From Cupriavidus necator (GTDB lineage Bacteria > Pseudomonadota > Gammaproteobacteria > Burkholderiales > Burkholderiaceae): a stretch of DNA of 32,000 bases. Location of the stretch: assembly GCF_016127575.1 (NCBI RefSeq), contig NZ_CP066018.1, positions 420,001-452,000 on the forward strand, in the 5' to 3' direction. The notes beneath the pieces are model-generated. The model was not told where the DNA came from. It ran no database searches and saw nothing but the letters and a program-made list of their open reading frames with translations. Both the position numbers and the translations under genes were made by a program. Of the stretch, positions 4,989 to 27,601 are shown one piece after another; the first letter of the stretch is position 1; each line of letters begins with the position of its first letter.

Positions 4989-5064
4989 GCCGAAGTAGCT
5001 CAGTCGGTAGAGCAGCTCATTCGTAATGAGAAGGTCGGGGGTTCGATTCCTCTCTTCGGCACCA
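4989..5064 (+). tRNA. tRNA-Thr (anticodon CGU)
   Basis: 76 nt folded by hand into a cloverleaf. Acceptor stem GCCGAAG/CTTCGGC, D arm GCTC-AGTCGGTA-GAGC, anticodon loop TTCGTAA (CGT at 5022-5024), T arm GGGGG-TTCGATT-CCTCT, encoded CCA. Confidence 0.9.
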
Positions 5065-6454: not shown

Positions 6455-7843
6455 TTACGCCGCCGGATTGATGTTGTGGTTGTGGCGGAACAGGTTGCCC
6501 GGGTCATAGCGCCGCTTCACCTCGACCAGCCGGTCGTAGTTGGGCCCGTAGGCCGCGCCGATGCGGTCGGTTTCTTCCTGCGTCAGGAAGTTCACATAGA
6601 CGCTGCCCAGCGCGAAGGGCGCTGCCGCGCGGAACACTTCACGGGCCCAGCTGATGCACTTGTCGTCGTCAGCGGGCGCGTCCCAGCGCCCGTGCAGGTT
6701 CATGATGAAGTTGGCATCGCGGCTGGCATAGGCGGTCGCATCGGGCGCGACGCGGTTGGTCTGCCCGCCCATGGCGCCGATAAAGACCTCGCATTGCGGC
6801 GAGGGCAGCTTGCCGATCTGTTCGATCAGCATCGTGATCAGGCCGTCGTCCAGCCCGGCGAAGTTGTGCGATTTCCAGTAGTTGCGAGCGCCCGGTGTCA
6901 GCAACGGATCGAAGGCCTGCTGCCATGCCGTGAGCGGCATCGGGCCGAGATGCTCGCCATAGGGCGTGCCGAGCTTGCGCAACGGCTCGACCAGTTCGGG
7001 GCCTTTGTCAGGCGGGCCGATATAGCAGATCGCCAGTGCCGCGACCGGCTTGCCGTGCGTCTCGGGCGGCAGGAACGGCAGCGGCGGCGCCTGGCGCAGC
7101 ACCACCCAGACGGTCAGCTCGTCAGGCATCGACTTGAACAGTTCACGGTAGGCCGGCAACACCGCGGCGGCCTGTTCCAGCGGATAGACGATCAGCCCGC
7201 CATAGATCTCGGGGCCGACCGGGTGCAGCCGGAACTCGAACATCGTCACCACGCCGAAGTTGCCGCCGCCGCCGCGCAGCGCCCAGAACAGGTCGGCGTT
7301 CTCGTCGGCGCTGGCGCGCACCAGCTTGCCGTCGGCGGTCACGACCTGTGCCGATACCAGGTTGTCGACGGTGGTACCGAACTTGCGGCTGAGCCAGCCG
7401 AAGCCGCCGCCGAGCGTCAGCCCGGCCACGCCGGTGGTGGAGTTGATGCCCAGTGGCGTGGCGAGGCCGAAGGCCTGCGCCTCATGGTCGAAATCGCGCA
7501 GCGTGGCGCCGGGCTCCACATAGCCGCGTTGCGCGTGGGGATCGATGCGCACGGATTTCATCTGCGACAGATCCAGCACCATGCCGTCCTCGCAGATCGC
7601 CAGCCCGCCGATATTGTGGCCGCCGCCGCGTATCGACAGCAGCACGCCATGGTCGCGCGCGAAGTTGACCGCGGCGATCACGTCGGCAGCGCCCGCGGCC
7701 TGCACGATCAGTGGCGGACGGCGGTCGATCATCGCGTTCCAGATGCGGCGCGCTTCGTCGTAGCCGCTGTCGTCCGGCTGCAGCAGGCGCCCGCGCAACT
7801 GCGCCTTGAGTGCCTCAATGTGTTCCTGCGATGGCTGGGCCAT
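6455..7843 (-). CDS. FAD-binding oxidoreductase (VAO/BBE-type, FAD_binding_4 plus BBE C-terminus)
   Basis: Track ORF 6455..7912 trimmed to ATG 7843 (GGGAGG SD upstream). SIRGGGHNIGG FAD motif. The C-terminal YDPGNLFRHNHNINP is berberine-bridge-like. Confidence 0.85.
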   Translation of the reverse strand: MAQPSQEHIEALKAQLRGRLLQPDDSGYDEARRIWNAMIDRRPPLIVQAAGAADVIAAVNFARDHGVLLSIRGGGHNIGGLAICEDGMVLDLSQMKSVRIDPHAQRGYVEPGATLRDFDHEAQAFGLATPLGINSTTGVAGLTLGGGFGWLSRKFGTTVDNLVSAQVVTADGKLVRASADENADLFWALRGGGGNFGVVTMFEFRLHPVGPEIYGGLIVYPLEQAAAVLPAYRELFKSMPDELTVWVVLRQAPPLPFLPPETHGKPVAALAICYIGPPDKGPELVEPLRKLGTPYGEHLGPMPLTAWQQAFDPLLTPGARNYWKSHNFAGLDDGLITMLIEQIGKLPSPQCEVFIGAMGGQTNRVAPDATAYASRDANFIMNLHGRWDAPADDDKCISWAREVFRAAAPFALGSVYVNFLTQEETDRIGAAYGPNYDRLVEVKRRYDPGNLFRHNHNINPAA

Positions 7844-15379: not shown

Positions 15380-15410
15380 AAAACGGCGACTGCGGATGCG
15401 TCAGTTGCCG
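15380..15410 (-). terminator. Weak intrinsic terminator overlapping the tadE-like stop codon
   Basis: Minus strand CGGCAAC-13 nt-GTCGCCG (one mismatch) followed by TTTTTG. It sits at the edge of the only AT-rich spacer in the gene array. Confidence 0.4.
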
Positions 15411-16111
15411 CGATACGGCGATTGCATCCGCACGATCGCCTCGGACTCGAGCGGGATGCGCCATTCCGACGCCAGCGTGGCCCGTCCGGTGCAGAAATTG
15501 GGCGTGGTCGGGACCTCCATGCCGCGGTACGAACCGGTCGCAACAAAATTCCGGATGCCGTTGACCAGCGAGTAGATGGTGCGGTCGGCAAACGGCACGA
15601 ACATTTCGTAGCAGTACGTGACCCGGATCTTCAGCAGGTTGGCGTCCTGGATATTGACGCCAGAGGACGGCCCCGCGCTGGTGGCGCGGTACATCAGGCT
15701 GTCGTTGGGGATCTCCCGCGTGGTCTTGCCGGCGTAGTAGCCGCTTCGCCCGAAATCCTGCAGCGCCGCCGGCGTCGGGTTCAGCACGTCGATCCTGGCC
15801 TGGGTGCGGGCCTCGAACTGGGCCTTGGCATAGCCGGTGGCATGCGCGGTACGGTCGGCGGAGCGCACGAACAGCGGCGTCAGCCCCAGCGCCAGCCCCT
15901 TGCGCATGCTGGCCAGCCGGCCGTGGTCGACGGCGCCTTCGCGCGCGGCCTGCAAGGCGGCGTGGTCTAGCGTGGCCTTGGCCTGGTACAGCAGCCCGAA
16001 CTGGATCACGCCCAGGCACAGCAGCAGCAGCGCCGGCGCGATGATCAGGAATTCCACCGCGGACTGTCCCCGTGCCCCGCGCCGCGCCGCGTGCTTTTGC
16101 TGGTGCGTCAT
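15401..16111 (-). CDS. tadE: TadE-like pseudopilin
   Basis: The N-terminus RGARG/QSAVEFLIIAPALLLLCLGVIQFG matches the G/XXXXE[FY] class-III signal and the TadE N-terminal motif. ATGA overlap with the upstream DUF192 gene. Confidence 0.8.
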   Translation of the reverse strand: MTHQQKHAARRGARGQSAVEFLIIAPALLLLCLGVIQFGLLYQAKATLDHAALQAAREGAVDHGRLASMRKGLALGLTPLFVRSADRTAHATGYAKAQFEARTQARIDVLNPTPAALQDFGRSGYYAGKTTREIPNDSLMYRATSAGPSSGVNIQDANLLKIRVTYCYEMFVPFADRTIYSLVNGIRNFVATGSYRGMEVPTTPNFCTGRATLASEWRIPLESEAIVRMQSPYRGN

Positions 16112-16473
16112 GGCCCCTCCTCCCGCAGTTCCAGGTTCTGGCCCGGCGCAATCCCCAATGCCGCCGCGCGCCCCGCGCCGAGCTCAAGCGTCTGGCGCGC
16201 GCGCCAGTGGGCACGCACGCGCAGGCGTCCCACGCACGGGTGCACCGCCAGCACGCGCTGCCGCTTGTCGAGAAACACCACGTCGATCGCCATGCGCATG
16301 CCAAAGGTGTGGACTGCGCCGCAGGGGGACAGCAGCAAGGCTTCGTCCGGTGCCATCGAATCGCGGCTGAGCAGCCCCGTCATGCGTTCGCGCGCAGTGG
16401 CCGCCACCGACACGCGCACGCCGGTGTCGAGCGTGCTGTGGCCGGCCCGCAGGTAGAGGCGCGCCTGCCTCAC
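16108..16473 (-). CDS. DUF192 domain protein
   Basis: The core LLLSPCGAVHTFGMRMAIDVVFLD resembles the DUF192 (COG1430) signature. The GTG start overlaps the tadC stop (GTGA) and the stop overlaps the tadE start (ATGA). No signal peptide is evident. Confidence 0.7.
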   Translation of the reverse strand: MRQARLYLRAGHSTLDTGVRVSVAATARERMTGLLSRDSMAPDEALLLSPCGAVHTFGMRMAIDVVFLDKRQRVLAVHPCVGRLRVRAHWRARQTLELGAGRAAALGIAPGQNLELREEGP

Positions 16474-17351
16474 AGCAGCCCTTCCTGCATAAACTTCATC
16501 ACGATCGGGAAGCCAAGCACGATAAAGGTGACCGGGAAGATAAACACCACCAGCGGAAAGATCAGCTTGACCGGCGCTTCCATGGCCTGCTTCTCCGCGC
16601 GCTGGAAGCGCTCGGTGCGCCGCTGCTCCGACTGGAAGCGCAGCGTGGCGGCCAGCCCCGAGCCCATGCGCTCCGCCTGGATCACGGCACCGACGAAATT
16701 GGTGACCTCCTTCACGCGCAGGCGGTCATCCATGCGGCGCAGCGCATCGGCGCGGCTCAGGCCCGACTTCAGGTCGCGCAGCACGTGCTCGAACTCGCGC
16801 CGCAGCGGGCCCTCAGGCCCCTTCTCCACCGCCTGCAGCAGGGCGCCGTTGATGTTCAGGCCGGCCTCTACGCTCAGTGTCAGGAAATCCAGAAACACCG
16901 GCAGGTGGCGCGTGACCTGCAGCAGGTTGCGCTTGCGCACGTCGCGTAGCCAGATGCGCGGATAGAAGAAGCCCAGCGCGCTGGCGGCAAGCAGCAGCAG
17001 CGGCGAGAACACGCCCAGCCCCAGCATGGCTATGCCCGCCAGCAGGCAGAACGCCAGCGCCGAAACGATCGACAGCGACAGGAACTGGCGCGCCGTCATC
17101 AGGAACGACATGCCCGTCAGGCGCAGTTGCTCGTCCACCGCGGCGCGCAGCGACTTCGGCGTGATCCAGACGAGATGGTGGTCGAAGAAGCGCACCACCG
17201 GCCAGACCGCGCGCAGCGACGGCGGCAACGGGTCGAGGTAGTCGCGCGCCTCGTCGGGAACGGCCACGGTGAGGCGGCGCATGGCCATGGTGGTGGCGGC
17301 GAGCACGCCGACCAGGCCGGCGGCAAGGGCGAAGGCAACAACAAGCATCAT
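16470..17351 (-). CDS. tadC: Tad pilus platform protein TadC (T2SS F family)
   Basis: 293 aa polytopic membrane protein with a T2SSF-like cytoplasmic domain (LPVFLDFLTLSVEAGLNINGAL). It lies directly after tadB. Confidence 0.88.
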   Translation of the reverse strand: MMLVVAFALAAGLVGVLAATTMAMRRLTVAVPDEARDYLDPLPPSLRAVWPVVRFFDHHLVWITPKSLRAAVDEQLRLTGMSFLMTARQFLSLSIVSALAFCLLAGIAMLGLGVFSPLLLLAASALGFFYPRIWLRDVRKRNLLQVTRHLPVFLDFLTLSVEAGLNINGALLQAVEKGPEGPLRREFEHVLRDLKSGLSRADALRRMDDRLRVKEVTNFVGAVIQAERMGSGLAATLRFQSEQRRTERFQRAEKQAMEAPVKLIFPLVVFIFPVTFIVLGFPIVMKFMQEGLL

Positions 17352-17363
17352 GGTCGGCCCCGG

Positions 17364-18212
17364 TCAGACATCGATATGGGTGATCTTGCTGATCGCCTTG
17401 TAGCCAAGCAGCTCCATCACCGCGATCACGGACAGCGTGCCCCAGCCGATCGGCGAACTGAACAGCGGTGCCATCGCCACCGGCTCCATGTGGTTCAGCA
17501 CCACGATCAGGAACAGCGGCAAGCCCGTCATCACCAGGCCCTGCATCTTGCCCTGCGCGGTCAGCGCGCGGATCTTGCCTTCCATCTGATGCTTCTCGCG
17601 CAGCGTGCGCGCCACCGACTCCAGCGTCTCGGCCAGGTTGCCGCCCACCTCGCGCGAGATCGTGATGGCCGCGGTCACCATCAGGAAGTCGGGCACTGGA
17701 ATGCGTTTTTCCATATTGCGCAGCGCGTCCATCAGGTCCACGCCAAGCCGGACTTCGCGCATCAGCAGGTCGAACTCCTGCGAGATCGGCGGGCGCGACT
17801 CCGCCACCACGCTTTCCAGCGCCATCGGGAAGCTGGCGCCGGCGCGCAGCGCGCTCGACATCATCAGCAGCGCGTCGGGCATCTGGTCTTCGATGGCCAT
17901 CAGGCGCTTGCGCTGCATCTTCTTCACCAGCGCGCGCGGCAGCAGCAGGCTCACCGGAATGCTGAGCATCGCGAAGAACACGTTCTGCGATACCAGCCAG
18001 GTCAGCAGCGGCAGCGCGAACACCGCCACCACCGAGATGCCGGCCACCTGCCGCATATTGATGAAGATAAAGAGATCGGCCAGCGAGGCCTCGACCTCGG
18101 TCGCCAGCGTCTGCGTATGCCGCACGAACCAGCGCTTGCCCTGCGACAGCACGGCCCACGCAATCAGCACGGTCATCAGGAAGGCGCCGCACAGCACCAG
18201 GGCAAGGTTCAT
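17364..18212 (-). CDS. tadB: Tad pilus platform protein TadB (T2SS F family)
   Basis: 282 aa with a T2SSF-like domain (MPDALLMMSSALRAGASFPMAL). A perfect AAGGAGG SD overlaps the tadA stop. Confidence 0.88.
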   Translation of the reverse strand: MNLALVLCGAFLMTVLIAWAVLSQGKRWFVRHTQTLATEVEASLADLFIFINMRQVAGISVVAVFALPLLTWLVSQNVFFAMLSIPVSLLLPRALVKKMQRKRLMAIEDQMPDALLMMSSALRAGASFPMALESVVAESRPPISQEFDLLMREVRLGVDLMDALRNMEKRIPVPDFLMVTAAITISREVGGNLAETLESVARTLREKHQMEGKIRALTAQGKMQGLVMTGLPLFLIVVLNHMEPVAMAPLFSSPIGWGTLSVIAVMELLGYKAISKITHIDV

Positions 18213-18221
18213 ATTGCCTCC

Positions 18222-20081
18222 TTACTCGTCGCGGGCGGTGAAGATGCCCGTATTGACCTGGATGCCGCGCCGGATCAGGTCCTGGTAGAAATCCGGGATA
18301 TACGAGGTCGCGACATAGCGCCCCTTGACCTTGCCGTCGGCACCGTAGCCTTCCTCGCGGAACATGAACACGTCCTGCAGCTGCACCACGCCCGTTTCCA
18401 TGCCGCTGACCTCGGTGATATGCGTCACGCGCCGCGAACCGCAGGAGAAGCGCGTCTGCTGCACGATCACGTCGACCGCCGAGCAGACCTGTTCGCGAAT
18501 GGCCTGCACCGGCAGGTCCAGCCCCGCCATCAGCGTCATCACCTCAAGACGCGACAGGCAGTCCCGCGGCGAGTTGGCGTGGGCCGTGGTCAGCGAGCCG
18601 TCATGGCCGGTATTCATGGCCTGCAGCATGTCCAGCGCTTCCCCGCCCCGGCATTCGCCGACGACGATGCGGTCCGGGCGCATGCGCAGGCAGTTCTTGA
18701 CCAGGTCGCGGATCGTCACCGCGCCCTTGCCTTCCATATTGGGCGGCCGCGCCTCCAGCGACACCAGGTTGGGCTGCGACAGCTGCAGCTCGGCCGCATC
18801 CTCGACCGTGACGATGCGTTCGTCATCCGGGATGAAGCTGGACAGCACGTTCAGCAGCGTGGTCTTGCCTGAGCCCGTGCCGCCGGAGATCACGATATTG
18901 GCGCGCCGCTCCACGGCGGTGCGCAGGAACTCCAGCATCTCGGGCGACAGCGAGCCGAAGCCGACCAGGTCTTCGCCCCTGAGCTTCTTGCGCGAGAACT
19001 TCCGGATGGTGATGTTCGGCCCCTTGAGGGCGAGCGGCGGGATCACCGCGTTCACGCGCGAGCCATCGGGCAGGCGCGCATCGACCATCGGCGAGCTTTC
19101 ATCGATGCGCCGTCCCAGCGGCGCGACGATGCGCTCGATGGCGCCCAACACGGCGCGGTCGTCGGTAAAGATCACCGGCGAACGCGTCAGCCTGCCGGCG
19201 CGCTCGACAAAGATCTCGTCATGGCAGTTGACCATGATTTCCGAGACCGCGTCATCGTCCAGCAGCTCTTCGAGCGGACCCAGCCCGATCACTTCGTCAA
19301 AGACGCTCTGCTTGAGCGCGTCCAGCGGGATCTCCTGGCTGCGGAACACGCTCTCCTTGAGGATGTCGTCGAGCAGCGAGCCGACCAGTTCGCATAGCTC
19401 GTCCTCGGCCATGCGCGCGACGTTGACGCGGCGCAGGTCGAGCGCAGCGATCAGGCGCTGGTGCGCCTGCTTGCGCAGTTCCACGCCGCGCGGCGAGTTG
19501 ATGGGTGCGCGCAAGGCCTCGTCGAGCGGCGCCACCGGCGCAGGTTTGGCGGCCACCGGCGCTGGCTTCGGCGCAGGTGCCGGCGGCCTGGGTGCGGGCA
19601 CCGCTTCGCGCGGCACCGGCACGCTTGCCTGGGGCGATGGCGACAGGGTCACCGCCTCCCGCGGCGGCGACGGAGGCGGCACAGGCATGGGCACCGGCAC
19701 CACCGGTTGAGGCGCCGCGGCATCCTGTGGTGGTTGGGCGTGGTGCTGCTGCGGCGATGGCTGCGCCGCCACGCCCGCTCCCGCTCGCCCCGGCTCGGCC
19801 ACGACGGACAGCACGAAGCCGCCGATCTCGATCTGGTCGGCCGCCGCCAGCGGGCCATAGCGCGTGACCGGGTCGCCATTGATCAGCGTCGAGGCAATGC
19901 CGCCCTGATCCTCGATATACCAGCCGCCGTTGTGTCCTTCGATGCGGGCGTGGACCTTGCCGATCAGCAGGCCCTTGAGGACGATGTCGCAGCCGGGATC
20001 CTTGCCGATGGTACAGCCCGGCCCCTTCACATGGATCACCTCGGCGCTGCCATTGCGCTGCTGCAGGCGGATATTGAGCAT
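18222..20081 (-). CDS. tadA: TadA/CpaF secretion ATPase with N-terminal FHA domain and Pro-rich linker
   Basis: Residues about 20-93 (GPGCTIGKDPGCDIVL...HARIEGHNGGWYIEDQGGIASTLINGDPV...IEIGGFVL) are FHA-like. Residues about 96-190 are a P/A-rich linker. Walker A ISGGTGSGKTT at 18861-18890, Walker B RIVVGECRG, and the His box GHDGSLTTAHAN. Confidence 0.92.
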   Translation of the reverse strand: MLNIRLQQRNGSAEVIHVKGPGCTIGKDPGCDIVLKGLLIGKVHARIEGHNGGWYIEDQGGIASTLINGDPVTRYGPLAAADQIEIGGFVLSVVAEPGRAGAGVAAQPSPQQHHAQPPQDAAAPQPVVPVPMPVPPPSPPREAVTLSPSPQASVPVPREAVPAPRPPAPAPKPAPVAAKPAPVAPLDEALRAPINSPRGVELRKQAHQRLIAALDLRRVNVARMAEDELCELVGSLLDDILKESVFRSQEIPLDALKQSVFDEVIGLGPLEELLDDDAVSEIMVNCHDEIFVERAGRLTRSPVIFTDDRAVLGAIERIVAPLGRRIDESSPMVDARLPDGSRVNAVIPPLALKGPNITIRKFSRKKLRGEDLVGFGSLSPEMLEFLRTAVERRANIVISGGTGSGKTTLLNVLSSFIPDDERIVTVEDAAELQLSQPNLVSLEARPPNMEGKGAVTIRDLVKNCLRMRPDRIVVGECRGGEALDMLQAMNTGHDGSLTTAHANSPRDCLSRLEVMTLMAGLDLPVQAIREQVCSAVDVIVQQTRFSCGSRRVTHITEVSGMETGVVQLQDVFMFREEGYGADGKVKGRYVATSYIPDFYQDLIRRGIQVNTGIFTARDE

Positions 20082-20088
20082 GGCCGGA

Positions 20089-21630
20089 TCAGCCTCCGTT
20101 CATCGGATCGACGCCGGGCGGGGGCAGCGGCGGCCGCTTCTGCTCCATCACTTCCTGCTCACGCACGGCATTCGCAGCGGGCAGCGGGCTTGGCTCGCCG
20201 AAGCGGTGGCGGTAGTTGGCATCGACATCCGCGCCACGCTGCAGCAGCGCGGCGTTCTCCGGGCTGGCCGGGTCATAGACGACCGGGGTGACAAAGATCA
20301 CCAGGTCGCTCTTGTTGTTGCGGAATTCGTCGGAACGGAACAATCGCCCGAGGATAGGGATGCTGCCCAGCAGCGGCACCTTGTCGACGGCCTTGGATGC
20401 GTCGGCATTGACCAGCCCCGAGATCGCCAGCGTTTCGCCCGCGCGGATCGAGGTCTCGGAGGTGGTGCGGCGCGTCAGGAAGGCCGGGAAGCCGCCGAAC
20501 GATACCGACGGGTCGATCTGGCTGATCTCGGTTTCCAGCGTGGTCGAGATGACATTGTCGACGTTCACCGCCGGGCGGATGTTGAGCTTGATGCCGTACG
20601 GCTTGTAGTCGACGTCGGTGGTGCCGAACGCGCCGGCCTTGGGAATCGGCACTTCGCCGCCGGCCAGGAAGGTGGCCAGCCCGCCGCTCTTGCTGTTGAG
20701 CTCCGGCGCGGCGAGCACGTAGGCATCGCCATCGGAAATGGCCAGGTTGATGCGCGAGAAGATGGTCGTGGCAATGCCGAGATAGAAGCCGCTGGCGGCG
20801 CCGGCCACCTGGCTCGGGGTATCGGTGAAGGTGGCCGCATCGGTGGACGGCAGCGTGCGATAGCGCCCGGTGTGCACCGGATTGCCCGCGAACGCGATCT
20901 GCGGGCCGTTGAAGCTCTGCTGCCAGGCAATGCCAAGCTTCTCCATGCCGCGCCGGGTGATCTCCATGATGTGCACCTTGAAGTGCACGGTCTTCTTCAG
21001 CGCATCGCCCTCGTCGGCGCGCACCAGGTTGACCACGCTGTCCAGGCCCGAGGTGGCGGTCTTGATCAGCGGCACCATCTGCGGATCGACGATGCCCGAC
21101 AGCACCACGCTGGGACCGACCACCTCGATCTTCAGGCCGCGCACGCTGCCCAGCGACGCCCGCAGGCGCTGGGCCACGTCGGCGGTATCGGCCGGCGCCA
21201 CGCGCAGCTTGCCCTGCAGCGCCACGCCGCGCTCGTTCCAGACGATCAGGCTGGTGGTGCCGATCTCCTCTGCCAGCAGCAGCAGGCGGCCGTCGACCAC
21301 GGTGCTGCTGACCAGCGCGCCATTGCCGATGGCCACGCGCCTGATGGTGCCCGGCACCTCGAGCGCGCGCACCTCGCCCTTGAACAGCTCGATCGCACCA
21401 AAGCGCGCCGGCAGCTCGTACGACGGCGGCTGCGCGCCTGTGCGGGCCGCGGTGGTCACGGGCTCGGCGGCCCAGGCTCCCGAGGCCAACGCTGCTGCCG
21501 CCAGTGCTGCCATACCCCCGCGCACCGCATGGCGCGCCCCCTTACCCGTTTTCCCGTCCGGTGCTCCGTGTACCGTGACCGCCTGCAGGCGCCCGGCGAT
21601 GCCGCCGCGCTGCGCGAAAGACCCATCCAT
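20089..21630 (-). CDS. rcpA: Tad secretin RcpA/CpaC
   Basis: Pilus-formation N-domain (IRRVAIGNGALVSSTVVDGRLLLLAEEIGTTSLIVWN). C-terminal secretin core (VPLLGSIPILGRLFRSDEFRNNKSDLVIFVTP). The start is uncertain: ATG 21630, or about 21513-21525 just before the signal peptide MAALAAAALASGAWA. Confidence 0.88.
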   Translation of the reverse strand: MDGSFAQRGGIAGRLQAVTVHGAPDGKTGKGARHAVRGGMAALAAAALASGAWAAEPVTTAARTGAQPPSYELPARFGAIELFKGEVRALEVPGTIRRVAIGNGALVSSTVVDGRLLLLAEEIGTTSLIVWNERGVALQGKLRVAPADTADVAQRLRASLGSVRGLKIEVVGPSVVLSGIVDPQMVPLIKTATSGLDSVVNLVRADEGDALKKTVHFKVHIMEITRRGMEKLGIAWQQSFNGPQIAFAGNPVHTGRYRTLPSTDAATFTDTPSQVAGAASGFYLGIATTIFSRINLAISDGDAYVLAAPELNSKSGGLATFLAGGEVPIPKAGAFGTTDVDYKPYGIKLNIRPAVNVDNVISTTLETEISQIDPSVSFGGFPAFLTRRTTSETSIRAGETLAISGLVNADASKAVDKVPLLGSIPILGRLFRSDEFRNNKSDLVIFVTPVVYDPASPENAALLQRGADVDANYRHRFGEPSPLPAANAVREQEVMEQKRPPLPPPGVDPMNGG

Positions 21631-21684: not shown

Positions 21685-22716
21685 TCAACGCGAGGCCGGC
21701 CGGCCCGCCATGGCGTTGGCGGCGTTGGCAACGGCGCCCTGCTGGGCCTGGGCGATGCCGCCCGCGGAACCGCCCATGGACCCGCCATTGGCCAGCGCCG
21801 AAGAAATGGCGTTGCCGATGTCCTGCGCGGTAGGCAGCTTGGAGATCATGTTGGCGCCCGCGGAACGGCCACCGACGATGTATTCGATGGCCGCTTCGTC
21901 GCCACCGGCGAAGAGCGCGTGCTCGCTGACCGCGATCTGCGGGGTCGCGGTCTTGTCGGCCGCATTGCGCAGCACCGCGCGCAGGCTGCCGACCTTCTGC
22001 GCCAGCGCCAGCCGCGCCGCCTGTTCGGGCGACACCATCAGCGTGAGGCTGTCGTAATCCGGGTTGGTGTCCACGCCCTCCGCGCCTTCCGCGGCCTGCG
22101 CCGCCATGGCTTCGCCATAGTCGCGCGGGCGCACGTCCTGGCCGGTGGCCAGCACCAGCATGTCCGACATCAGCAGCCGCGCGGTCTGCTTGTCGGTGCC
22201 TGCCGCAGTGGGCGAGGTGGAGCTGATCAGGAACAGGTCGACATGGTTGCCAGGCTTGAGCATCTTGGCCGTCGAGTTGACCATGTCGACCTCGATGGTG
22301 AAGGCGCGCTTGCCGGGCTTGAGCAGGTCGGAGAAATCGCGCGACTGCAGCGCTTCAACGTCGGCACGCCGCACCGGCTGGCCCTGCCGCACCTGGCGCA
22401 CCAGGCGCAGGTTCGCCACCTTGTCGAAGCTGCTCGCCAGGATCATGTCTTCGTAGACCAGGTCGGCCGGAATCTCCCGTGCCGCGAAGCCATTGCCGTC
22501 GATCACCGTGCCCGGCGCGGCGTTGCGCACCGGCACCATGACAGCCACGCGGCGGCCCTCGTTCAGCTGCGCGGCCAGCTGCTCTTTCAGTGCCGCTTCG
22601 CGCCCGCTCAGGAAGTGGTAGATCCACAGTGTCAGCAGGCCGGCGACCAGCACGGCGATGACGAGGACGACCCAGGGATTCCCGATGATTGAATGAATCT
22701 TGATTTTCTTCAGCAT
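21685..22716 (-). CDS. cpaB: Flp pilus assembly protein CpaB/RcpC with Gly/Ala-rich C-terminal tail
   Basis: N-terminal TM segment (WVVLVIAVLVAGLLTLWIY), then a SAF-like domain (VAVMVPVRNAAPGTVI), then an RcpC-like domain. The last 70 aa or so are low complexity. Confidence 0.85.
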   Translation of the reverse strand: MLKKIKIHSIIGNPWVVLVIAVLVAGLLTLWIYHFLSGREAALKEQLAAQLNEGRRVAVMVPVRNAAPGTVIDGNGFAAREIPADLVYEDMILASSFDKVANLRLVRQVRQGQPVRRADVEALQSRDFSDLLKPGKRAFTIEVDMVNSTAKMLKPGNHVDLFLISSTSPTAAGTDKQTARLLMSDMLVLATGQDVRPRDYGEAMAAQAAEGAEGVDTNPDYDSLTLMVSPEQAARLALAQKVGSLRAVLRNAADKTATPQIAVSEHALFAGGDEAAIEYIVGGRSAGANMISKLPTAQDIGNAISSALANGGSMGGSAGGIAQAQQGAVANAANAMAGRPASR

Positions 22717-22758
22717 GAATGTGCTTGCAGTAGCCAGACGCCGCCCGCTGGCGGTGCG

Positions 22759-22932
22759 TCAGGGAAGTGACAGGGAAAAGCTGTATGCCTGAAAGAAGGA
22801 CCTGAACGCCGCGGCCAGCATGCTGATGACCGAGTTGTCGCCGCCGGCGACCAGCACGGCAACGACCAGCAGCGTGATGACGATGTATTCGAACGCGGCC
22901 TGCCCGCGCTGGCGCCTGCTACGGATTGCCAT
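22759..22932 (-). CDS. 57-aa Flp-like mini-prepilin, not in the ORF track
   Basis: The ATG at 22932 lies 4 nt after the upstream TAG, with GGAG 7 nt upstream. Translation: MAIRSRRQRG/QAAFEYIVITLLVVAVLVAGGDNSVISMLAAAFRSFFQAYSFSLSLP. This is an exact G/XXXXEY Flp processing motif followed by a TM helix. The nucleotides were cross-checked against the overlapping track ORF 22710..23441. Confidence 0.6.
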   Translation of the reverse strand: MAIRSRRQRGQAAFEYIVITLLVVAVLVAGGDNSVISMLAAAFRSFFQAYSFSLSLP

Positions 22933-22936
22933 CGCG

Positions 22937-23662
22937 CTACTCCGGCCGCGCCACGGTGATCACCGCGTCGGTCTGGCCGGCGCGGTCGACAAAGGTGGCA
23001 TCCATGCGTTCCTGCTGCCGCTGCATGGCCAGCGTGAGGCCCTCGATGCGGCCCGAACCGTCGGCCACGGGCGCGGGCATCTGCACCACCGAACTCCAGC
23101 CCTGCGCCGCCAGCCGCTCGGCGGCGCGCTGCCGCGCCGCCTGCGCGTTGCCGGGCAGCCGGACCACCAGGGTGCGCCCGCGCTGGCCGCGGTCCGTGCT
23201 CTGGACATCCGACAGGACCTTGGCGCCGGGCGGCAGGCCCAGGTCGCCCAGCCCGGTGCCGGACGCCACCGGCGCCAGCTTGCTGACCGAGAAGATGCCC
23301 GCCACATGCCCGCCCGGCGCGGGCCTGGGCTCCAGCGACAGCACATAGTGGCAAAGCCCGTCGATCGCGCTCAGCACGTACTGGCCGCCGGCCCGCTGCC
23401 CGCGCGCCGGCACGCCTTCGCGCGTCCAGTACTGGCGCCACGCGTCCGAGACCGCTTCGGCGGTGCCGGCGAACTCCATCGTCAGCACCCGCGTGGGCAG
23501 GCCGTTGACCACCATGTCGGTGCCGACCGCATGCGCCCTGGCAGGCGCAACCGGCTGCCGCGTGCAGTCCGTCGCGGTCGCTGCCGCCGCGGACCAGGCG
23601 AGCGCGGCCGGCAGCAGCGCGGCCAGGCAGCGCATCAGCACGCCATGCATGCAGGCTTTCAT
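22937..23662 (-). CDS. Exported hypothetical protein embedded in the Tad locus
   Basis: 241 aa. Signal peptide MRCLAALLPAALAWSAAAA. The start is 1 nt after the upstream stop (TGAgATG). I recognise no family motif. Confidence 0.65.
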   Translation of the reverse strand: MKACMHGVLMRCLAALLPAALAWSAAAATATDCTRQPVAPARAHAVGTDMVVNGLPTRVLTMEFAGTAEAVSDAWRQYWTREGVPARGQRAGGQYVLSAIDGLCHYVLSLEPRPAPGGHVAGIFSVSKLAPVASGTGLGDLGLPPGAKVLSDVQSTDRGQRGRTLVVRLPGNAQAARQRAAERLAAQGWSSVVQMPAPVADGSGRIEGLTLAMQRQQERMDATFVDRAGQTDAVITVARPE

Positions 23663-23663
23663 C

Positions 23664-24473
23664 TCAGCGGCTCCCCAGGCGGTCGGCGGGGACCACGTCG
23701 GGCTGGATGCGGCCCAGGTCCAGTTTCAGGATTTCCGGCCCGAAGGCGGCCAGCCCGACGGTCAGCGCGGTGTCGATCACGCCGCCCTTGCTGGTGGGCA
23801 CCGCTTCCTTGATCACGGCGAGCGTGCCGTTGCGCCCCTCGGGCGTCCAGGCGTTGGTCAGCAGCACGGTGTGGTCCTGCATGCCGAAGCCGGTCCAGCC
23901 CGGCCACAGCGCGCGCAGGGCCGCGTTGTCGCCGGCGACGGACAACCCCACCTCGGCCCGGTAGAGGTTGCGCGTGGCCAGGTCGAAGCCGGCACTGACC
24001 GCGTTGGCCGCACCCATGGCAGCCGTGATCGGCTTGAGCGTGGCTGCCGGGGTTTCGTCGACGCCGCTGCCCAGGGTCACGTCGGCATAGTTGCGCAGCA
24101 TGTCGACGCCGGCATGGTCCTTCCACATCGGCGCCATGCCGCCGGGCAGGCGGCGCGCGGTGCGGTCGCTCGACGCCAGCGCGGCCTGGTCGTGCCCCAG
24201 CACGCGCTGCACGAATTCGCTGCGGATCTCTTCGTCGCCCTTGCTGGCGAAGCTGCCGTGCGACGCGCGCCAGCCCGGGTCGACGGTCCAGACCGTGCGC
24301 TCCCAGCCGGCATAGCGCGAGGCCATCAGCGCCTTGTTGCGCACGTCGCTGAACTTGCCCAGCATCGCCATGCCGAGAAACAGCACGCCGAGCACCGTCA
24401 TCGCGGCGATCACGAATTCGATCATTGCCTGTCCGGCTGCCCGGTTCGGCCTGGCTGGCCTGCGCATGCGCAT
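23664..24473 (-). CDS. TadE/TadF-like pseudopilin
   Basis: Track ORF 23664..24512 trimmed to ATG 24473 (GGGAG SD, 10 nt after the tadG-like stop). The N-terminus RAAG/QAMIEFVIAAMTVLGVLFLG fits G/XXXXEF. Confidence 0.8.
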   Translation of the reverse strand: MRMRRPARPNRAAGQAMIEFVIAAMTVLGVLFLGMAMLGKFSDVRNKALMASRYAGWERTVWTVDPGWRASHGSFASKGDEEIRSEFVQRVLGHDQAALASSDRTARRLPGGMAPMWKDHAGVDMLRNYADVTLGSGVDETPAATLKPITAAMGAANAVSAGFDLATRNLYRAEVGLSVAGDNAALRALWPGWTGFGMQDHTVLLTNAWTPEGRNGTLAVIKEAVPTSKGGVIDTALTVGLAAFGPEILKLDLGRIQPDVVPADRLGSR

Positions 24474-24483
24474 GTCCGCTCCC

Positions 24484-26013
24484 TCAGTTGCCCTGTGCCG
24501 CGATCGCGGCAACGCGTTCGAGATCGCTGGTCTGCGTCAGCGATGCCTGCCAGTACGGATTGAAGAGGCTCGGGTATTCGATGCGCGAATCGGCGCGCCG
24601 CCACCCCGCCGCGCTGCGCAGCGCACCCGCCATGCCGCCGCTGTCGGTCGGGCGGATAAAGTACGCGCTGCCGCTGGCCAGCGCGCGCATCATGCCGCCG
24701 GCCATGCGCCCGTCCAGCGTCAGGCGATCTCCGCCCGGCAGCACGCGCGAACTGGTGACGACTGAAGTGTCCTGGCGCTGCGCCTCGATCGTGATCGAGG
24801 GCGCGCGGTTGAAATCGTCCACGGGCCCGGTGCCAGGCTTGGGCTGGTTGCTCAGGTCGGCGTACTCCTGCAGCCCCGCGGGCTTGTTGTGCAGGGTCTT
24901 GCCCGGGCCCGACGAGTACTGCATCTGCGCGGCGATCAGCGTCAGCGGGTTCAGCAGCGAACCGCCGAAGTTGCTGTAGCCGCCATAGCCGGAGCGGCCC
25001 GAATAGCGCCCGCCCGGGCCATTGGCCGCGCCGCCGCGCCCGACACTGGACACCGTGGGAATCGCAAACCCGACCGGGCCGGCCGGCGTGGCCCAGACAC
25101 AGGCAAGCGTGCCGTTGGCCTGCGAGGCATCGAGTGCTTCCCAGCCCTTCTTGTCGCGGCGCAGATGCGTGCCGCCATCATGCGTGACGACGGTCACCAT
25201 GATGGCCACCACCGCGCCCTTGCAGCCCTTGTAGGCAGTGGGGACCGCCGTCGGCGAGCGCGGCGAGCCGCGGTCCTTCAAAAAGCCGTCGAGCGTGGTG
25301 CCGTCGGTGGTGACGTCGGCAAAGCGGTCCTTGCCGGTGGCCGAACCCTGCTTGGGATTCTGCGGATCAGTCACGGTGGTGAACTTGGTCCAGCGGGCCA
25401 GCTGAACGCCATAGCGCGGGCCAAAGAAGTAGCCGGAACTGACCGTCGAATCCGGCTGGTTGCGCTTGGCGACTTCGTCGGTCACCAGCGGTACCGCGGC
25501 GATGGTGCCCGCGTGGTAGGCGCGCTGCGCCATGCTGAGCGCGGCGATGATGTCATCAAGCCCGGTCACCAGCGGCGGCAGCAGCGTGTTCAGGGCGGAT
25601 CGCACCGGCGTGATCGCGGCCTTGCCCAGTTGCTTGGGCGTGGTCCACAGCAACTGCCCGTCGGAGAAGATCTTGACCAGCGTGTCGATCCAGGTGTTTT
25701 CCGTGTAGGTGCCCTTCAGCTCGTCGATCCACGACTTAAGGCTCACGGCCTGGGCCACGGCCACCTGGTTGGCCACCATCGCGCGGTTCGCGTAGGCGGC
25801 AAAGTTGTAGTCGCGCGCCTGCAGCACCGCGGCGCTATAGGCCGCTGCGTCCGCCGTGTTCTGCAGCTTGGTCTTGGCGCTGGTCAGCTGGCTCGCGTTG
25901 AAGGCGAGATACAGGGCCAGCCCGCCGATGGCGAGGAACACCAGCGCGAAGGCGAGTGCCTGACCGCGCTGGCCGGGACGGCTGCGTCGATGCGCAAGAC
26001 CTGTTTTGCCCAT
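24484..26013 (-). CDS. tadG: TadG-like pilus assembly protein
   Basis: The N-terminus GQRGQALAFALVFLAIGGLALYLAFNASQLTSAKTKLQNTADAAAYSAAV matches the TadG N-terminal (Tad_N) pattern. I prefer ATG 26013 over the track TTG 26049. Confidence 0.78.
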   Translation of the reverse strand: MGKTGLAHRRSRPGQRGQALAFALVFLAIGGLALYLAFNASQLTSAKTKLQNTADAAAYSAAVLQARDYNFAAYANRAMVANQVAVAQAVSLKSWIDELKGTYTENTWIDTLVKIFSDGQLLWTTPKQLGKAAITPVRSALNTLLPPLVTGLDDIIAALSMAQRAYHAGTIAAVPLVTDEVAKRNQPDSTVSSGYFFGPRYGVQLARWTKFTTVTDPQNPKQGSATGKDRFADVTTDGTTLDGFLKDRGSPRSPTAVPTAYKGCKGAVVAIMVTVVTHDGGTHLRRDKKGWEALDASQANGTLACVWATPAGPVGFAIPTVSSVGRGGAANGPGGRYSGRSGYGGYSNFGGSLLNPLTLIAAQMQYSSGPGKTLHNKPAGLQEYADLSNQPKPGTGPVDDFNRAPSITIEAQRQDTSVVTSSRVLPGGDRLTLDGRMAGGMMRALASGSAYFIRPTDSGGMAGALRSAAGWRRADSRIEYPSLFNPYWQASLTQTSDLERVAAIAAQGN

Positions 26014-26065
26014 GTTCCGGGATCGCGAGTGCTGGAGCGCAGCGAGCAACTGGCGGCGATGCCGC

Positions 26066-26359
26066 TTAGTTGTTCTTGCCCGTGTCGTTGCCGACGTTGT
26101 AGTTGTTCAGCCCCTTGCCCTGGTTGGCCTTGGAGCTGGCATCGTCCGCGGCGCTGCCGGCTTGCTTGATGGCCTGCTTGGATGCCGAGTTCTTGCCGGC
26201 CATTTCCTGGGCGAGGCCCGCGGTCTGGTTGCGGATGGTCTGGCCGAACATGGCATAGACGCCGATCGCGGACACGGCGATCAGTGCCACGATGATGATG
26301 TATTCGGTCATGCCCTGACCTTGCTGACGCGCCTTGCGGCGCAGATTTGCGAATGTCAT
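26066..26359 (-). CDS. flp: Flp-family type IVb pilin with extended hydrophilic C-terminus
   Basis: Track ORF 26066..26401 trimmed to ATG 26359 (GGAAGGAG SD 5 nt upstream). MTFANLRRKARQQG/QGMTEYIIIVALIAVSAIGVYAMFG is a G/XXXXEY motif plus a TM helix. 97 aa. Confidence 0.85.
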   Translation of the reverse strand: MTFANLRRKARQQGQGMTEYIIIVALIAVSAIGVYAMFGQTIRNQTAGLAQEMAGKNSASKQAIKQAGSAADDASSKANQGKGLNNYNVGNDTGKNN

Positions 26360-26790
26360 AACGACTCCTTCCATGGGAATGCACAGAAACGGTTGCGCCA
26401 TATGAAAGGCGCCTCATATGGAAGCCATATGTAAAGGAAAACACTGATGCGAACGGTTATCCGGCAGCAGCGGCGTGCATGCTATCAAAAGGTTCCTTAG
26501 GGCCGAAGAGGAATAATTTCAATATTTTTAATAGCGTTGAAATAACCCTACCAGGGACTCCCCCGAATGTAACAAAAAGTAATCCTTCACAATGGGCGGA
26601 GGTTATACGAACTATTCTCGGAACCGGCACATTGCCAGCAATGGGGTGCTGTTGAGCGTTGATTTACGGATGACAAGCCGCGCCACGGGCGGCAGGCCGC
26701 ATGCGGCCTGCCTGCTGGACTTCAAGGCGAACCGGGGCAGTCATACCGCCCCTGCCAGCTGCCCGCGGCATAAAATAAAGAAGCAAAAAA
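26360..26790. promoter_or_regulatory. AT-rich divergent control region between flp and the ArsR-family gene
   Basis: G+C drops locally (for example aggaataatttcaatatttttaatagcgttgaaataac). It contains three CATATG hexamers (26399-26404, 26415-26420, 26426-26431) and an ATTTCAA..TTGAAAT inverted repeat (about 26514-26543). Confidence 0.5.
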
Positions 26791-27087
26791 ATGGCAGAAC
26801 TGGATATAAAGAATGCAGTGGAAATACTGGGGGCGTTAGCACAGGAAAATCGGCTCAGGATATTTTTACTGCTCGCCGATTCCGGACCGGAAGGAATACC
26901 GGCAGGTATTATCTCCGCATCTTCCGATTTAACTCCCTCTTCCGTAACATTCCATTTGAAGGAATTGGTCAGGACGGGGTTGGTTAAAAGCCGCCAGCAA
27001 GGGCGGTTCATGATTTACTCCGCCACCACCGACGGCATTTCCTCAGTCCTCGCATTTCTTGGCGGGAAATGCGCTTCCCTGCAGTAG
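26791..27087 (+). CDS. ArsR/SmtB-family winged-helix transcriptional regulator
   Basis: 98 aa. LGALAQENRLRIFLLL...SSVTFHLKELVRTGLVKSRQQGRFMIY is the ArsR HTH_5 pattern. G+C is lower than in neighbouring genes. There is no CXC alpha-3 motif and no His/Asp alpha-5 metal motif. Confidence 0.85.
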   Translation: MAELDIKNAVEILGALAQENRLRIFLLLADSGPEGIPAGIISASSDLTPSSVTFHLKELVRTGLVKSRQQGRFMIYSATTDGISSVLAFLGGKCASLQ

Positions 27088-27098
27088 AGGGCACTGTT

Positions 27099-27121
27099 CC
27101 GGCGGCGCGCCGCGCCGCCGG
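27099..27121 (+). other. GC-only palindrome just after the ArsR-family stop (possible terminator stem)
   Basis: CCGGCGGCGCG-c-CGCGCCGCCGG. No T-run follows. Confidence 0.35.
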
Positions 27122-27601
27122 ACGTCCCGCCGCGCGGGCCTGCGCCGCCAGCCCGGCACCTCATCCCGACAATCCCGTCTGCCAAATTTGCGTATTTCGA
27201 ATTCATGACACAAATCGTGTCAATTATGTTGTTTCAGGATCATTGCCGATTTCGGAATTCAGCCTTGATCCAGATGCGACACGCCGCCGCTGGTGGCCAA
27301 GGCAGGCGGTTTCTGACCATTTGCCGCGCTTTCGCCGGAGCCGAGCGGCAGACGCCCGGAGAAACGCAGGCATCCCGTGACGGTAACAATGCAGCATTTT
27401 TAATACTTTTACCATTTATCCGACAGCAGCTCGCAAGCTCGATCGAGCCCGCCGAGAGTCCGTGCCGGCGATGCGAAAGCGCCAACCACACCGCGCCCCG
27501 CACCGGTGAGGCCAGCGTCACTCGGGGACCAAGCGGGACTTTTCGGTAAACTGTCGGCATTCCGGGACGCGCCGCGTCCCGCAGCCTGCGCAGTCCCCCT
27601 C

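Follow-up and report, generated by a model that had tools for sequence, protein, structure and literature searches.

The DNA analysed is a 32,000-nucleotide (nt) stretch of the Cupriavidus necator genome (assembly GCF_016127575.1, contig NZ_CP066018.1, positions 420,001 to 452,000), hereafter the window, whose minus strand carries an operon of Tad pilus genes. Within this operon, between a gene for an exported protein of 241 amino acids (aa) and cpaB, lies a 57-codon open reading frame (ORF) that specifies a small prepilin-like protein, referred to here as the mini-pilin. According to our results, this ORF is a genuine gene with a family of its own, and its product is best read as a candidate minor pilin. 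The ATG of the gene (22932-22930) lies 4 nt past the TAG (22939-22937) of the 241-aa ORF and is preceded by a Shine-Dalgarno-like GGAG, which ends 7 nt before it; both elements of the start context described in the original prediction were located, and its placement of the gene, three genes apart from the 97-aa Flp and with cpaB downstream, agrees with the gene order (Table 1). Purine-rich elements are also present at the orthologous junctions. Neither promoter-like nor terminator-like sites were seen in the flanks of the gene, nor was a stable hairpin. A pilin-type attenuator after the gene was considered and rejected, as, despite a visible 5-base-pair GC stem, the fold energy does not stand out from that of shuffled sequences (z = -0.27), and no terminator-like site was found on the minus strand.

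The basic leader of the predicted protein has a net charge of +4 and runs into a cleavage site (G10/Q11 to E15-Y16) that fits the G/XXXXEY pattern, followed by a 19-residue hydrophobic stretch, IVITLLVVAVLVA. The C-terminal helix is moderately amphipathic, with a hydrophobic moment (muH) of 0.357 that was reached by 2% of the shuffled sequences. An AlphaFold2 model built from the family alignment consists of two helices (residues 9-29 and 35-55), with a mean predicted local distance difference test score (pLDDT) of 78; a Foldseek search with this model against PDB retrieved nothing, unsurprisingly for two short helices. The anatomy proposed in the original prediction (basic leader, G/QAAFEY site, hydrophobic helix, amphipathic tail and a mature length of 47 aa) was thus borne out in the 57-aa ORF.

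Table 1. The mini-pilin gene and the surrounding operon of the window, ordered from the long Flp gene downstream to the OmpA-like protein.
Feature	Position	Strand	Supporting evidence or remark
97-aa long Flp, presumed major pilin, first gene	26066-26359	minus	G/QGMTEY site; AAGGAG Shine-Dalgarno; weak Flp_Fap match
TadG-like large minor pilin	24484-26049	minus	Pfam Tad PF13400, E = 3.5e-8
TadF-like pseudopilin, 282 aa as listed	23664-24512	minus	G/QAMIEF site; L004 orthologue with weak TadE match
241-aa exported protein, directly upstream of the mini-pilin	22937-23662	minus	Synteny in 8/8 loci
GGAG, Shine-Dalgarno-like, directly adjoining the upstream gene's stop codon	22940-22943	minus	Ends 7 nt before the mini-pilin ATG
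Mini-pilin coding sequence, 57 aa, ATG to TGA (stop included)	22759-22932	minus	MAIRSRRQRGQAAFEYIVITLLVVAVLVAGGDNSVISMLAAAFRSFFQAYSFSLSLP; dN/dS, public gene calls
Basic leader MAIRSRRQRG, codons 1-10, ending in Gly(-1) of the predicted prepilin-peptidase site	22903-22932	minus	Gly invariant in 62/62
Predicted mature 47-aa pilin: QAAFEY and hydrophobic helix, GGDNS turn, amphipathic C-terminal helix ending AYSFSLSLP	22762-22902	minus	AlphaFold2, conservation profile, muH
cpaB/rcpC, 42 nt downstream of the mini-pilin	21685-22716	minus	RcpC 8.9e-29; TIGR03177 4.6e-39
cpaC/rcpA secretin	20089-21630	minus	Domain scan
cpaF/tadA ATPase with N-terminal FHA domain	18222-20081	minus	Domain scan
tadB platform gene	17364-18212	minus	T2SSF in orthologues
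tadC platform gene	16470-17351	minus	T2SSF in orthologues
DUF192 gene	16108-16473	minus	Domain scan
TadE pseudopilin, 236 aa, closing the pilus gene set	15401-16111	minus	G/QSAVEF site
164-aa protein, then OmpA-like protein		minus	Downstream of TadE

With only 57 codons, and with long spurious ORFs overlapping it in other frames (22710-23441, minus; 22820-23812, plus), the reading frame might be taken for a chance product of GC-rich DNA that resembles a prepilin by accident. We regard this explanation as extremely improbable, and it is rejected because of the substitution pattern, the family size and the synteny. Comparison with the orthologue of a metagenome contig (L001, 79% identical) yielded a nonsynonymous divergence (dN) of 0.164 and a synonymous divergence (dS) of 0.901, i.e., a dN/dS of 0.18 in frame, and values of 0.5-2.65 in the five other frames, so that purifying selection is confined to the mini-pilin frame. 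Relative to closer Cupriavidus relatives, the gene displays 2-3 differences, all of them synonymous and at third positions, with no nonsynonymous change; over the same comparison, the upstream 241-aa gene shows 6-7 amino-acid changes in 165 codons. The same length and motifs are kept in more than 200 protein clusters, and synteny is maintained down to about 36-44% identity. Further, when all six frames were scanned for Gx4E[YF] with a hydrophobic stretch behind it, four sites were found in the 32 kilobases (kb), relative to 0.03 expected from 200 first-order Markov simulations. All four lie in the tad operon, in the coding frame, and share a G/Q junction, one each in the long Flp, the TadF-like protein, the 57-aa ORF (G/QAAFEY) and TadE; therefore, a single peptidase could serve all four. 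The GC content at third (0.83) and second (0.47) codon positions is similar to that of the neighbouring genes, in a window of 67.6% GC. Purifying selection acts on the 57-codon ORF, which codes for a protein.

The mini-pilin belongs to a sizeable family. When 1.84 billion representatives (50% identity) were searched with a profile built from the two closest sequences, 144 proteins were retrieved at E <= 1e-3, nearly all of 50-80 aa and aligned end to end, and a second search with a 62-sequence alignment as query gave at least 213 clusters at 90% identity, with Cupriavidus, Janthinobacterium, Duganella and Massilia among the named sources. The Gx4E[YF] motif is present in 241 of the 248 family members, with Gln at +1 in 210 and Tyr at +6 in 237, and the median mature length is 50 aa. 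The C-terminus carries a motif of its own, [YFW][SAGT][YFWH]x[ILMV][SAG], found in 207/248 members and often ending in ...LSLP. Across the alignment of 62 sequences, G10 and E15 never vary, Q(+1) and Y(+6) are kept in 90% and 97% of the sequences, respectively, and the C-terminal helix is conserved at a mean of 2.39 bits relative to 2.18 bits for the transmembrane helix, with S55 in 95%; the last nine residues, with an AYS[FY]xLSLP-like end, are among the best conserved of the family. All inspected family matches carry the same signature, and no canonical Flp of the ATAIEYGLIAA type was observed among the inspected hits, including the 144 of the profile search.

Regarding known families, an hhalign comparison between the mini-pilin family and the long Flp alignment gave a probability of 96.7% (E = 3.7e-10) over 29 columns, limited to the leader, the cleavage site and the first helix (alpha1N). 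The mini-pilin and the long Flp proteins (89-97 aa) therefore have a homologous leader, G/Q context and first helix, whereas their C-terminal parts are unrelated, that of the long Flp being variable, hydrophilic and ended by KGxxxYNxxND. The long Flp core reads GQGMxEYIIIVALIAVxAIGVY..FGxT(I/V)RxQ(T/V)AG, with KG(L/M)xxYN near the C-terminus, and the long Flp of the window reaches 16.4 bits with Flp_Fap, below the 32.2-bit cut-off (gathering threshold) of that model. With canonical Flp/Fap pilins (PF04964; e.g., Caulobacter crescentus PilA, 8U1K) the mini-pilin has in common the G/XXXXEY site, a hydrophobic alpha1N, a mature length of about 45-50 aa, an all-helical structure and the tad locus, differing from them in that its C-terminal half has its own conserved motif; PilA 8U1K was the only match of the family profile among PDB sequences, and it was non-significant (E = 0.55). 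The TadE and TadF pseudopilins resemble the mini-pilin in carrying a class III signal for the same kind of peptidase and in their minor-pilin role in tad loci, but they are larger, at 150-290 aa, include a globular domain and usually have E-F at +5/+6, in contrast to the E-Y of the 47-aa mature mini-pilin; the TadE model (PF07811) did not match the mini-pilin and matched 1/62 relatives weakly. Matches to Flp_Fap were found in 16/62 relatives, the best with E = 5.7e-4 and none above 32.2 bits. The archaeal Class_IIIsignal model (PF04021, gathering threshold 23.7 bits) matched residues 9-28 of the mini-pilin with 18.4 bits (E = 0.0022), also below its threshold, as in 8/62 relatives, and this match reflects only the common pattern of cleavage site and helix. 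Taken together, the mini-pilin resembles Flp in motif, size, fold class and locus, and constitutes a separate sequence family outside the curated Flp models. The claim of a second Flp-type subunit thus stands as far as a class III (Flp-type) prepilin of the tad operon, distinct from the 97-aa Flp, is concerned; it does not extend to a Pfam Flp_Fap match.

The gene had been described as unlisted and as easily missed by automated annotation. The former is correct for an ORF track with a 60-aa threshold and does not apply to public annotations, where the gene is called; the latter was contradicted by our searches. The exact 57-aa protein occurs on 179 contigs (NCBI, nr, UniRef, IMG, ENA, Logan and MetaClust), and at least five NCBI assemblies include it as a called gene (GCA_051903385.1, GCA_000389805.1, GCA_053747635.1, GCA_000379565.1 and GCA_018223725.1); furthermore, CP196472.1 matches the window exactly over 1174 nt surrounding the gene. 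Relatives are named 'hypothetical protein' at NCBI, and many of them 'Flp pilus assembly pilin Flp' at JGI. The gene is thus neither new nor unannotated, and the concept of a small Flp minor pilin has already been published. What the present analysis contributes is to define these proteins as a cohesive family, marked by a distinctive C-terminal signature and a fixed position within a single tad subtype, which Pfam and NCBIfam miss. As the Flp models of both libraries miss this family and NCBI lists its members as hypothetical, a dedicated profile would improve the annotation of the tad subtype.

In order to describe the genomic setting, eight loci were compared, namely the window, L001, L004, the P0161 contig, L005, L006, L007 and L008, whose mini-pilins are 38-100% identical to the query. 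The original prediction had called for a conservation check at the syntenic position, and in all eight loci the mini-pilin gene was found directly upstream of cpaB. The order is the same in 8/8: a long Flp (89-97 aa), TadG-like and TadF-like genes, sometimes an extra gene, an exported protein (224-249 aa) and the mini-pilin, followed by cpaB, cpaC, cpaF, tadB, tadC, DUF192, sometimes a TPR gene, and TadE. The start of the mini-pilin gene overlaps the upstream stop codon or lies within 10 nt of it in 7/8 loci; judging from this arrangement, the gene is translationally coupled to the upstream exported-protein gene. It is single-copy in 8/8 loci, and the long Flp gene is tandemly duplicated in two of them (L004:6330-6557 and 6656-6925; L007:689-973 and 1058-1327). 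The gene is real, its family exists, the processing motif is present, and both the position and the coupling are conserved.

We propose, with a confidence slightly above even, that the mini-pilin is a minor Flp-type pilin with TadV-type cleavage after Gly10, acting as an adapter or primer between a TadE/F/G tip and a long-Flp fibre. The anatomy of the protein and the Myxococcus precedent described below are the grounds for inferring that it is processed, enters the pilus and serves as an adapter. According to this proposal, the 57-aa precursor would be inserted into the inner membrane and cut after Gly10 by an aspartic prepilin peptidase of the TadV/CpaA type, encoded elsewhere in the genome, to release a 47-aa all-helical pilin with Glu at +5. 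The product would not be a bulk fibre subunit, and would be produced at a low level, stoichiometrically with the minor-pilin module (TadG-like, TadF-like, TadE and the 241-aa protein). As an adapter or priming pilin, it would pack through an N-terminal helix in the manner of the 97-aa major Flp, and contact with the tip complex would be made by the conserved C-terminal helix (..AFRSFFQAYSFSLSLP), so that long-Flp polymerisation could begin on the tip. Indirect signs of low expression relative to the long Flp may be seen in the GGAG 4-mer, as opposed to AAGGAG, in the upstream coupling and in the lack of an own promoter or terminator in the flanks.

A minor role was preferred to a major one because the gene is single-copy, lies mid-operon after the TadG-like, TadF-like and exported-protein genes, and has its start coupled to the upstream gene, and because it is the long Flp that holds the first position in the operon, the AAGGAG Shine-Dalgarno, a GC-poor upstream region and the duplications (L004 and L007). 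The alternative, in which the mini-pilin forms the fibre as its major or co-major subunit and the 97-aa long Flp serves as an accessory or variant pilin, agrees with the mature size and two-helix prediction of the mini-pilin, as in canonical Flp/PilA, and with the invariant E(+5) and the Y(+6) kept in 97% of the family, as in fibre-forming Flp. Nevertheless, a fibre subunit would hardly be expected as a single-copy gene coupled to an accessory gene, with a Shine-Dalgarno of four letters only and no promoter or terminator signals of its own; moreover, the strongly conserved C-terminus of the mini-pilin is unlike the surface of a shaft pilin, in contrast to the long Flp, which is variable at residues 56-82. 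We therefore consider this alternative quite unlikely.

The closest functional precedent is found in the Kil/Tad pilus of Myxococcus xanthus, in which the major pilin is a long Flp, KilP (2025 study, PMC12075869), a further point against the mini-pilin as the fibre subunit. In that system, TadE/F/G-like minor pilins make exchangeable tips, and two small Flp adapter pilins, KilK (MXAN_4655) and KilO (MXAN_1150, 59 aa), are encoded with the tip genes; the double deletion of KilK and KilO abolishes polymerisation, both being needed to prime KilP, and they were modelled between the tip helix bundle and the fibre (PMC12075869). The mini-pilin resembles KilK and KilO in being a small all-helical Flp that has a leader as well as a conserved cleavage motif, whose gene accompanies TadE/F/G-like tip genes and which coexists with a longer major Flp (the 97-aa Flp in the window, KilP in Myxococcus). 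Their C-termini differ, being ..VLNLPFP in KilK and ..VIQAPI in KilO (deduced from primers), as compared with ..AYSFxLSLP in the mini-pilin family. The hosts also differ, the former being a predatory system of Myxococcus and the latter a non-predatory betaproteobacterium.

Some results weigh against the proposal of an adapter or priming pilin. First, at 47 aa the mature protein equals in size the major Flp of canonical systems, e.g., C. crescentus PilA (45 aa), to which the match was weak (E = 0.55), so that a fibre-forming role keeps some probability. Second, the N- and C-termini of KilK and KilO, deduced from the published primers, were not found among the 258 family-set proteins fetched. 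Third, no prepilin peptidase (Peptidase_A24) was found in the window nor within 10 kb in any related locus fetched. Finally, the Pfam Flp_Fap scan of the 57-aa protein gave no match at E <= 1, and the NCBIfam scan of the mini-pilin and its 62 relatives gave none either, so that no curated Flp threshold was reached.

The strict adjacency and coupling of the mini-pilin gene to the gene for the 224-249-aa exported protein, and its adjacency to cpaB, in 8/8 loci also bear on another possibility, namely that the protein is an inner-membrane assembly factor, a pilin-like anchor working with the 241-aa protein and/or CpaB that never enters the pilus. The conserved C-terminal ...LSLP resembles a fixed protein-binding motif, and the accessory gene set is unlike the classical one, since no TadZ/CpaE gene was found in the window nor in the seven related loci fetched. 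However, G(-1) and E(+5) are invariant, as is typical of pilins that a peptidase processes and that pack by their helices, and would be pointless for a simple anchor, and the leader and alpha1N are homologous to those of the Flp of the same locus. An assembly factor is in our estimation unlikely, and the minor adapter or priming pilin remains our preferred reading.

Second Flp genes at a comparable position are on record in other bacteria. On chromosome 2 of Burkholderia gladioli BSR3, the published map gives TadV (bgla_2g00380), Flp (bgla_2g00390), TadG (bgla_2g00400) and TadE/F (bgla_2g00410), with bgla_2g00420 unlisted (PMC12075869, Suppl. Fig. 26), and continues with a 'Flp pilin' (bgla_2g00430), CpaB (bgla_2g00440), CpaC, CpaF, TadB, TadC (bgla_2g00480), bgla_2g00490, which is unlisted, and TadE/F (bgla_2g00500) (PMC12075869). 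A similar pattern is given for Stenotrophomonas maltophilia JV3, with BurJV3_0874, 0873, 0871, 0869 ('Flp pilin'), 0866-0864 and 0862; the role of the second Flp genes in these two species is not discussed in that study (PMC12075869). As the gene order of B. gladioli is that of the window, a second Flp at the position of the mini-pilin is already annotated there, and by gene order bgla_2g00430 and BurJV3_0869 are probably mini-pilin orthologues. One difference is that TadV (bgla_2g00380) lies beside flp in B. gladioli, whereas the Cupriavidus window is devoid of TadV. The BP1993-2003 region of Bordetella pertussis was also considered as an instance of the same architecture and was rejected, BP1995 being CpaB.

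If the adapter reading is right, the mini-pilin gene offers an easily mutated handle to ask how general Flp adapter pilins are among Tad pili, a question that would reach betaproteobacteria such as Cupriavidus, Burkholderia, Janthinobacterium and Massilia; to our knowledge, such adapters have so far been shown only in Myxococcus. A broader and speculative extension, which we deem doubtful, is that the whole family consists of dedicated adapter pilins of a distinct Tad subtype, with the C-terminal motif docking the TadE/F/G tip. This subtype would be marked by a long Flp, the lack of TadZ (window and seven related loci), DUF192 and, usually, an FHA-bearing CpaF, and would occur in Burkholderiales and possibly in Xanthomonadales too. 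In some members, this tip carries a polymorphic nuclease toxin fused to TadE. Were the extension true, the principle of an adapter plus exchangeable tips known from Myxococcus predation would be a general design of Tad pili, toxin-delivering ones included.

Toxin-bearing TadE genes were observed in two of the related loci. In L006, an 801-aa protein (17149-19554, plus strand) joins TadE (1.1e-15), PT-HINT (7.7e-12) and WHH/Colicin-DNase nuclease domains, and is followed by a SUKH/SMI1 immunity gene (19574-20143, plus strand); in L005, the TadE gene (16758-17636) is overlapped by a gene (17627-19174, plus strand) for a 515-aa protein with PT-HINT and Tox-REase-5 domains. The presence of toxin-bearing TadE at the 3' end of the operon suggests that toxins may be delivered by Tad pilus tips outside Myxococcus. 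None of the papers in the collection searched names both TadE and PT-HINT, and no such polymorphic toxin is encoded in the window.

Other features of the operon were also recorded. The FHA domain on CpaF was found in 5/8 loci (window, P0161, L006, L007 and L008), and no FHA match is on record for the CpaF proteins of L001, L004 and L005. In the window CpaF/TadA, this domain is joined through a Pro/Ala-rich linker of about 100-150 residues, and its presence points to a putative phosphothreonine-dependent control of the Tad motor. The listed TadF-like ORF begins at a TTG and shares 29 nt with the end of the TadG-like gene; since its orthologues start nearer the G/QAM(I/L/V)EF site, translation probably begins in fact at an internal ATG (MRMRRPARPNRAAG/Q...). 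A search of a plasmid collection with the DNA and with the TadF-like protein gave no match.

Upstream of the long Flp gene, which has a full AAGGAG Shine-Dalgarno, extends a non-coding region of 1.1 kb (26402-27505) that is GC-poor (0.49-0.54). Three of the four CATATG palindromes of the window lie within 33 base pairs (26399-26431), 40-70 nt upstream of the long-Flp start, and may represent a regulator-binding array; the total of CATATG in the window is not above chance. An Rfam scan of 22600-27600 found nothing, so there is no riboswitch upstream of flp, and the only Rfam match at gathering level in the window is a tRNA gene (4989-5061, plus strand) unrelated to the mini-pilin.

The 241-aa exported protein that precedes the mini-pilin has no Pfam or NCBIfam match in the local libraries, and its AlphaFold2 model is poor (pLDDT 63), with Foldseek template modelling (TM) scores below 0.3 and none significant. 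A genome-contig search with this protein as a single-sequence query retrieved one close relative only, Cupriavidus sp. UYPR2.512, where it is 94% identical; in Cupriavidus sp. KK10 it is 96% identical. Two cysteines, C33 and C104 in the window numbering, are conserved in this protein, and a precomputed annotation assigns PF27226 (AF_1845), a newer Pfam family, to its L004 orthologue and, faintly, to that of L007.

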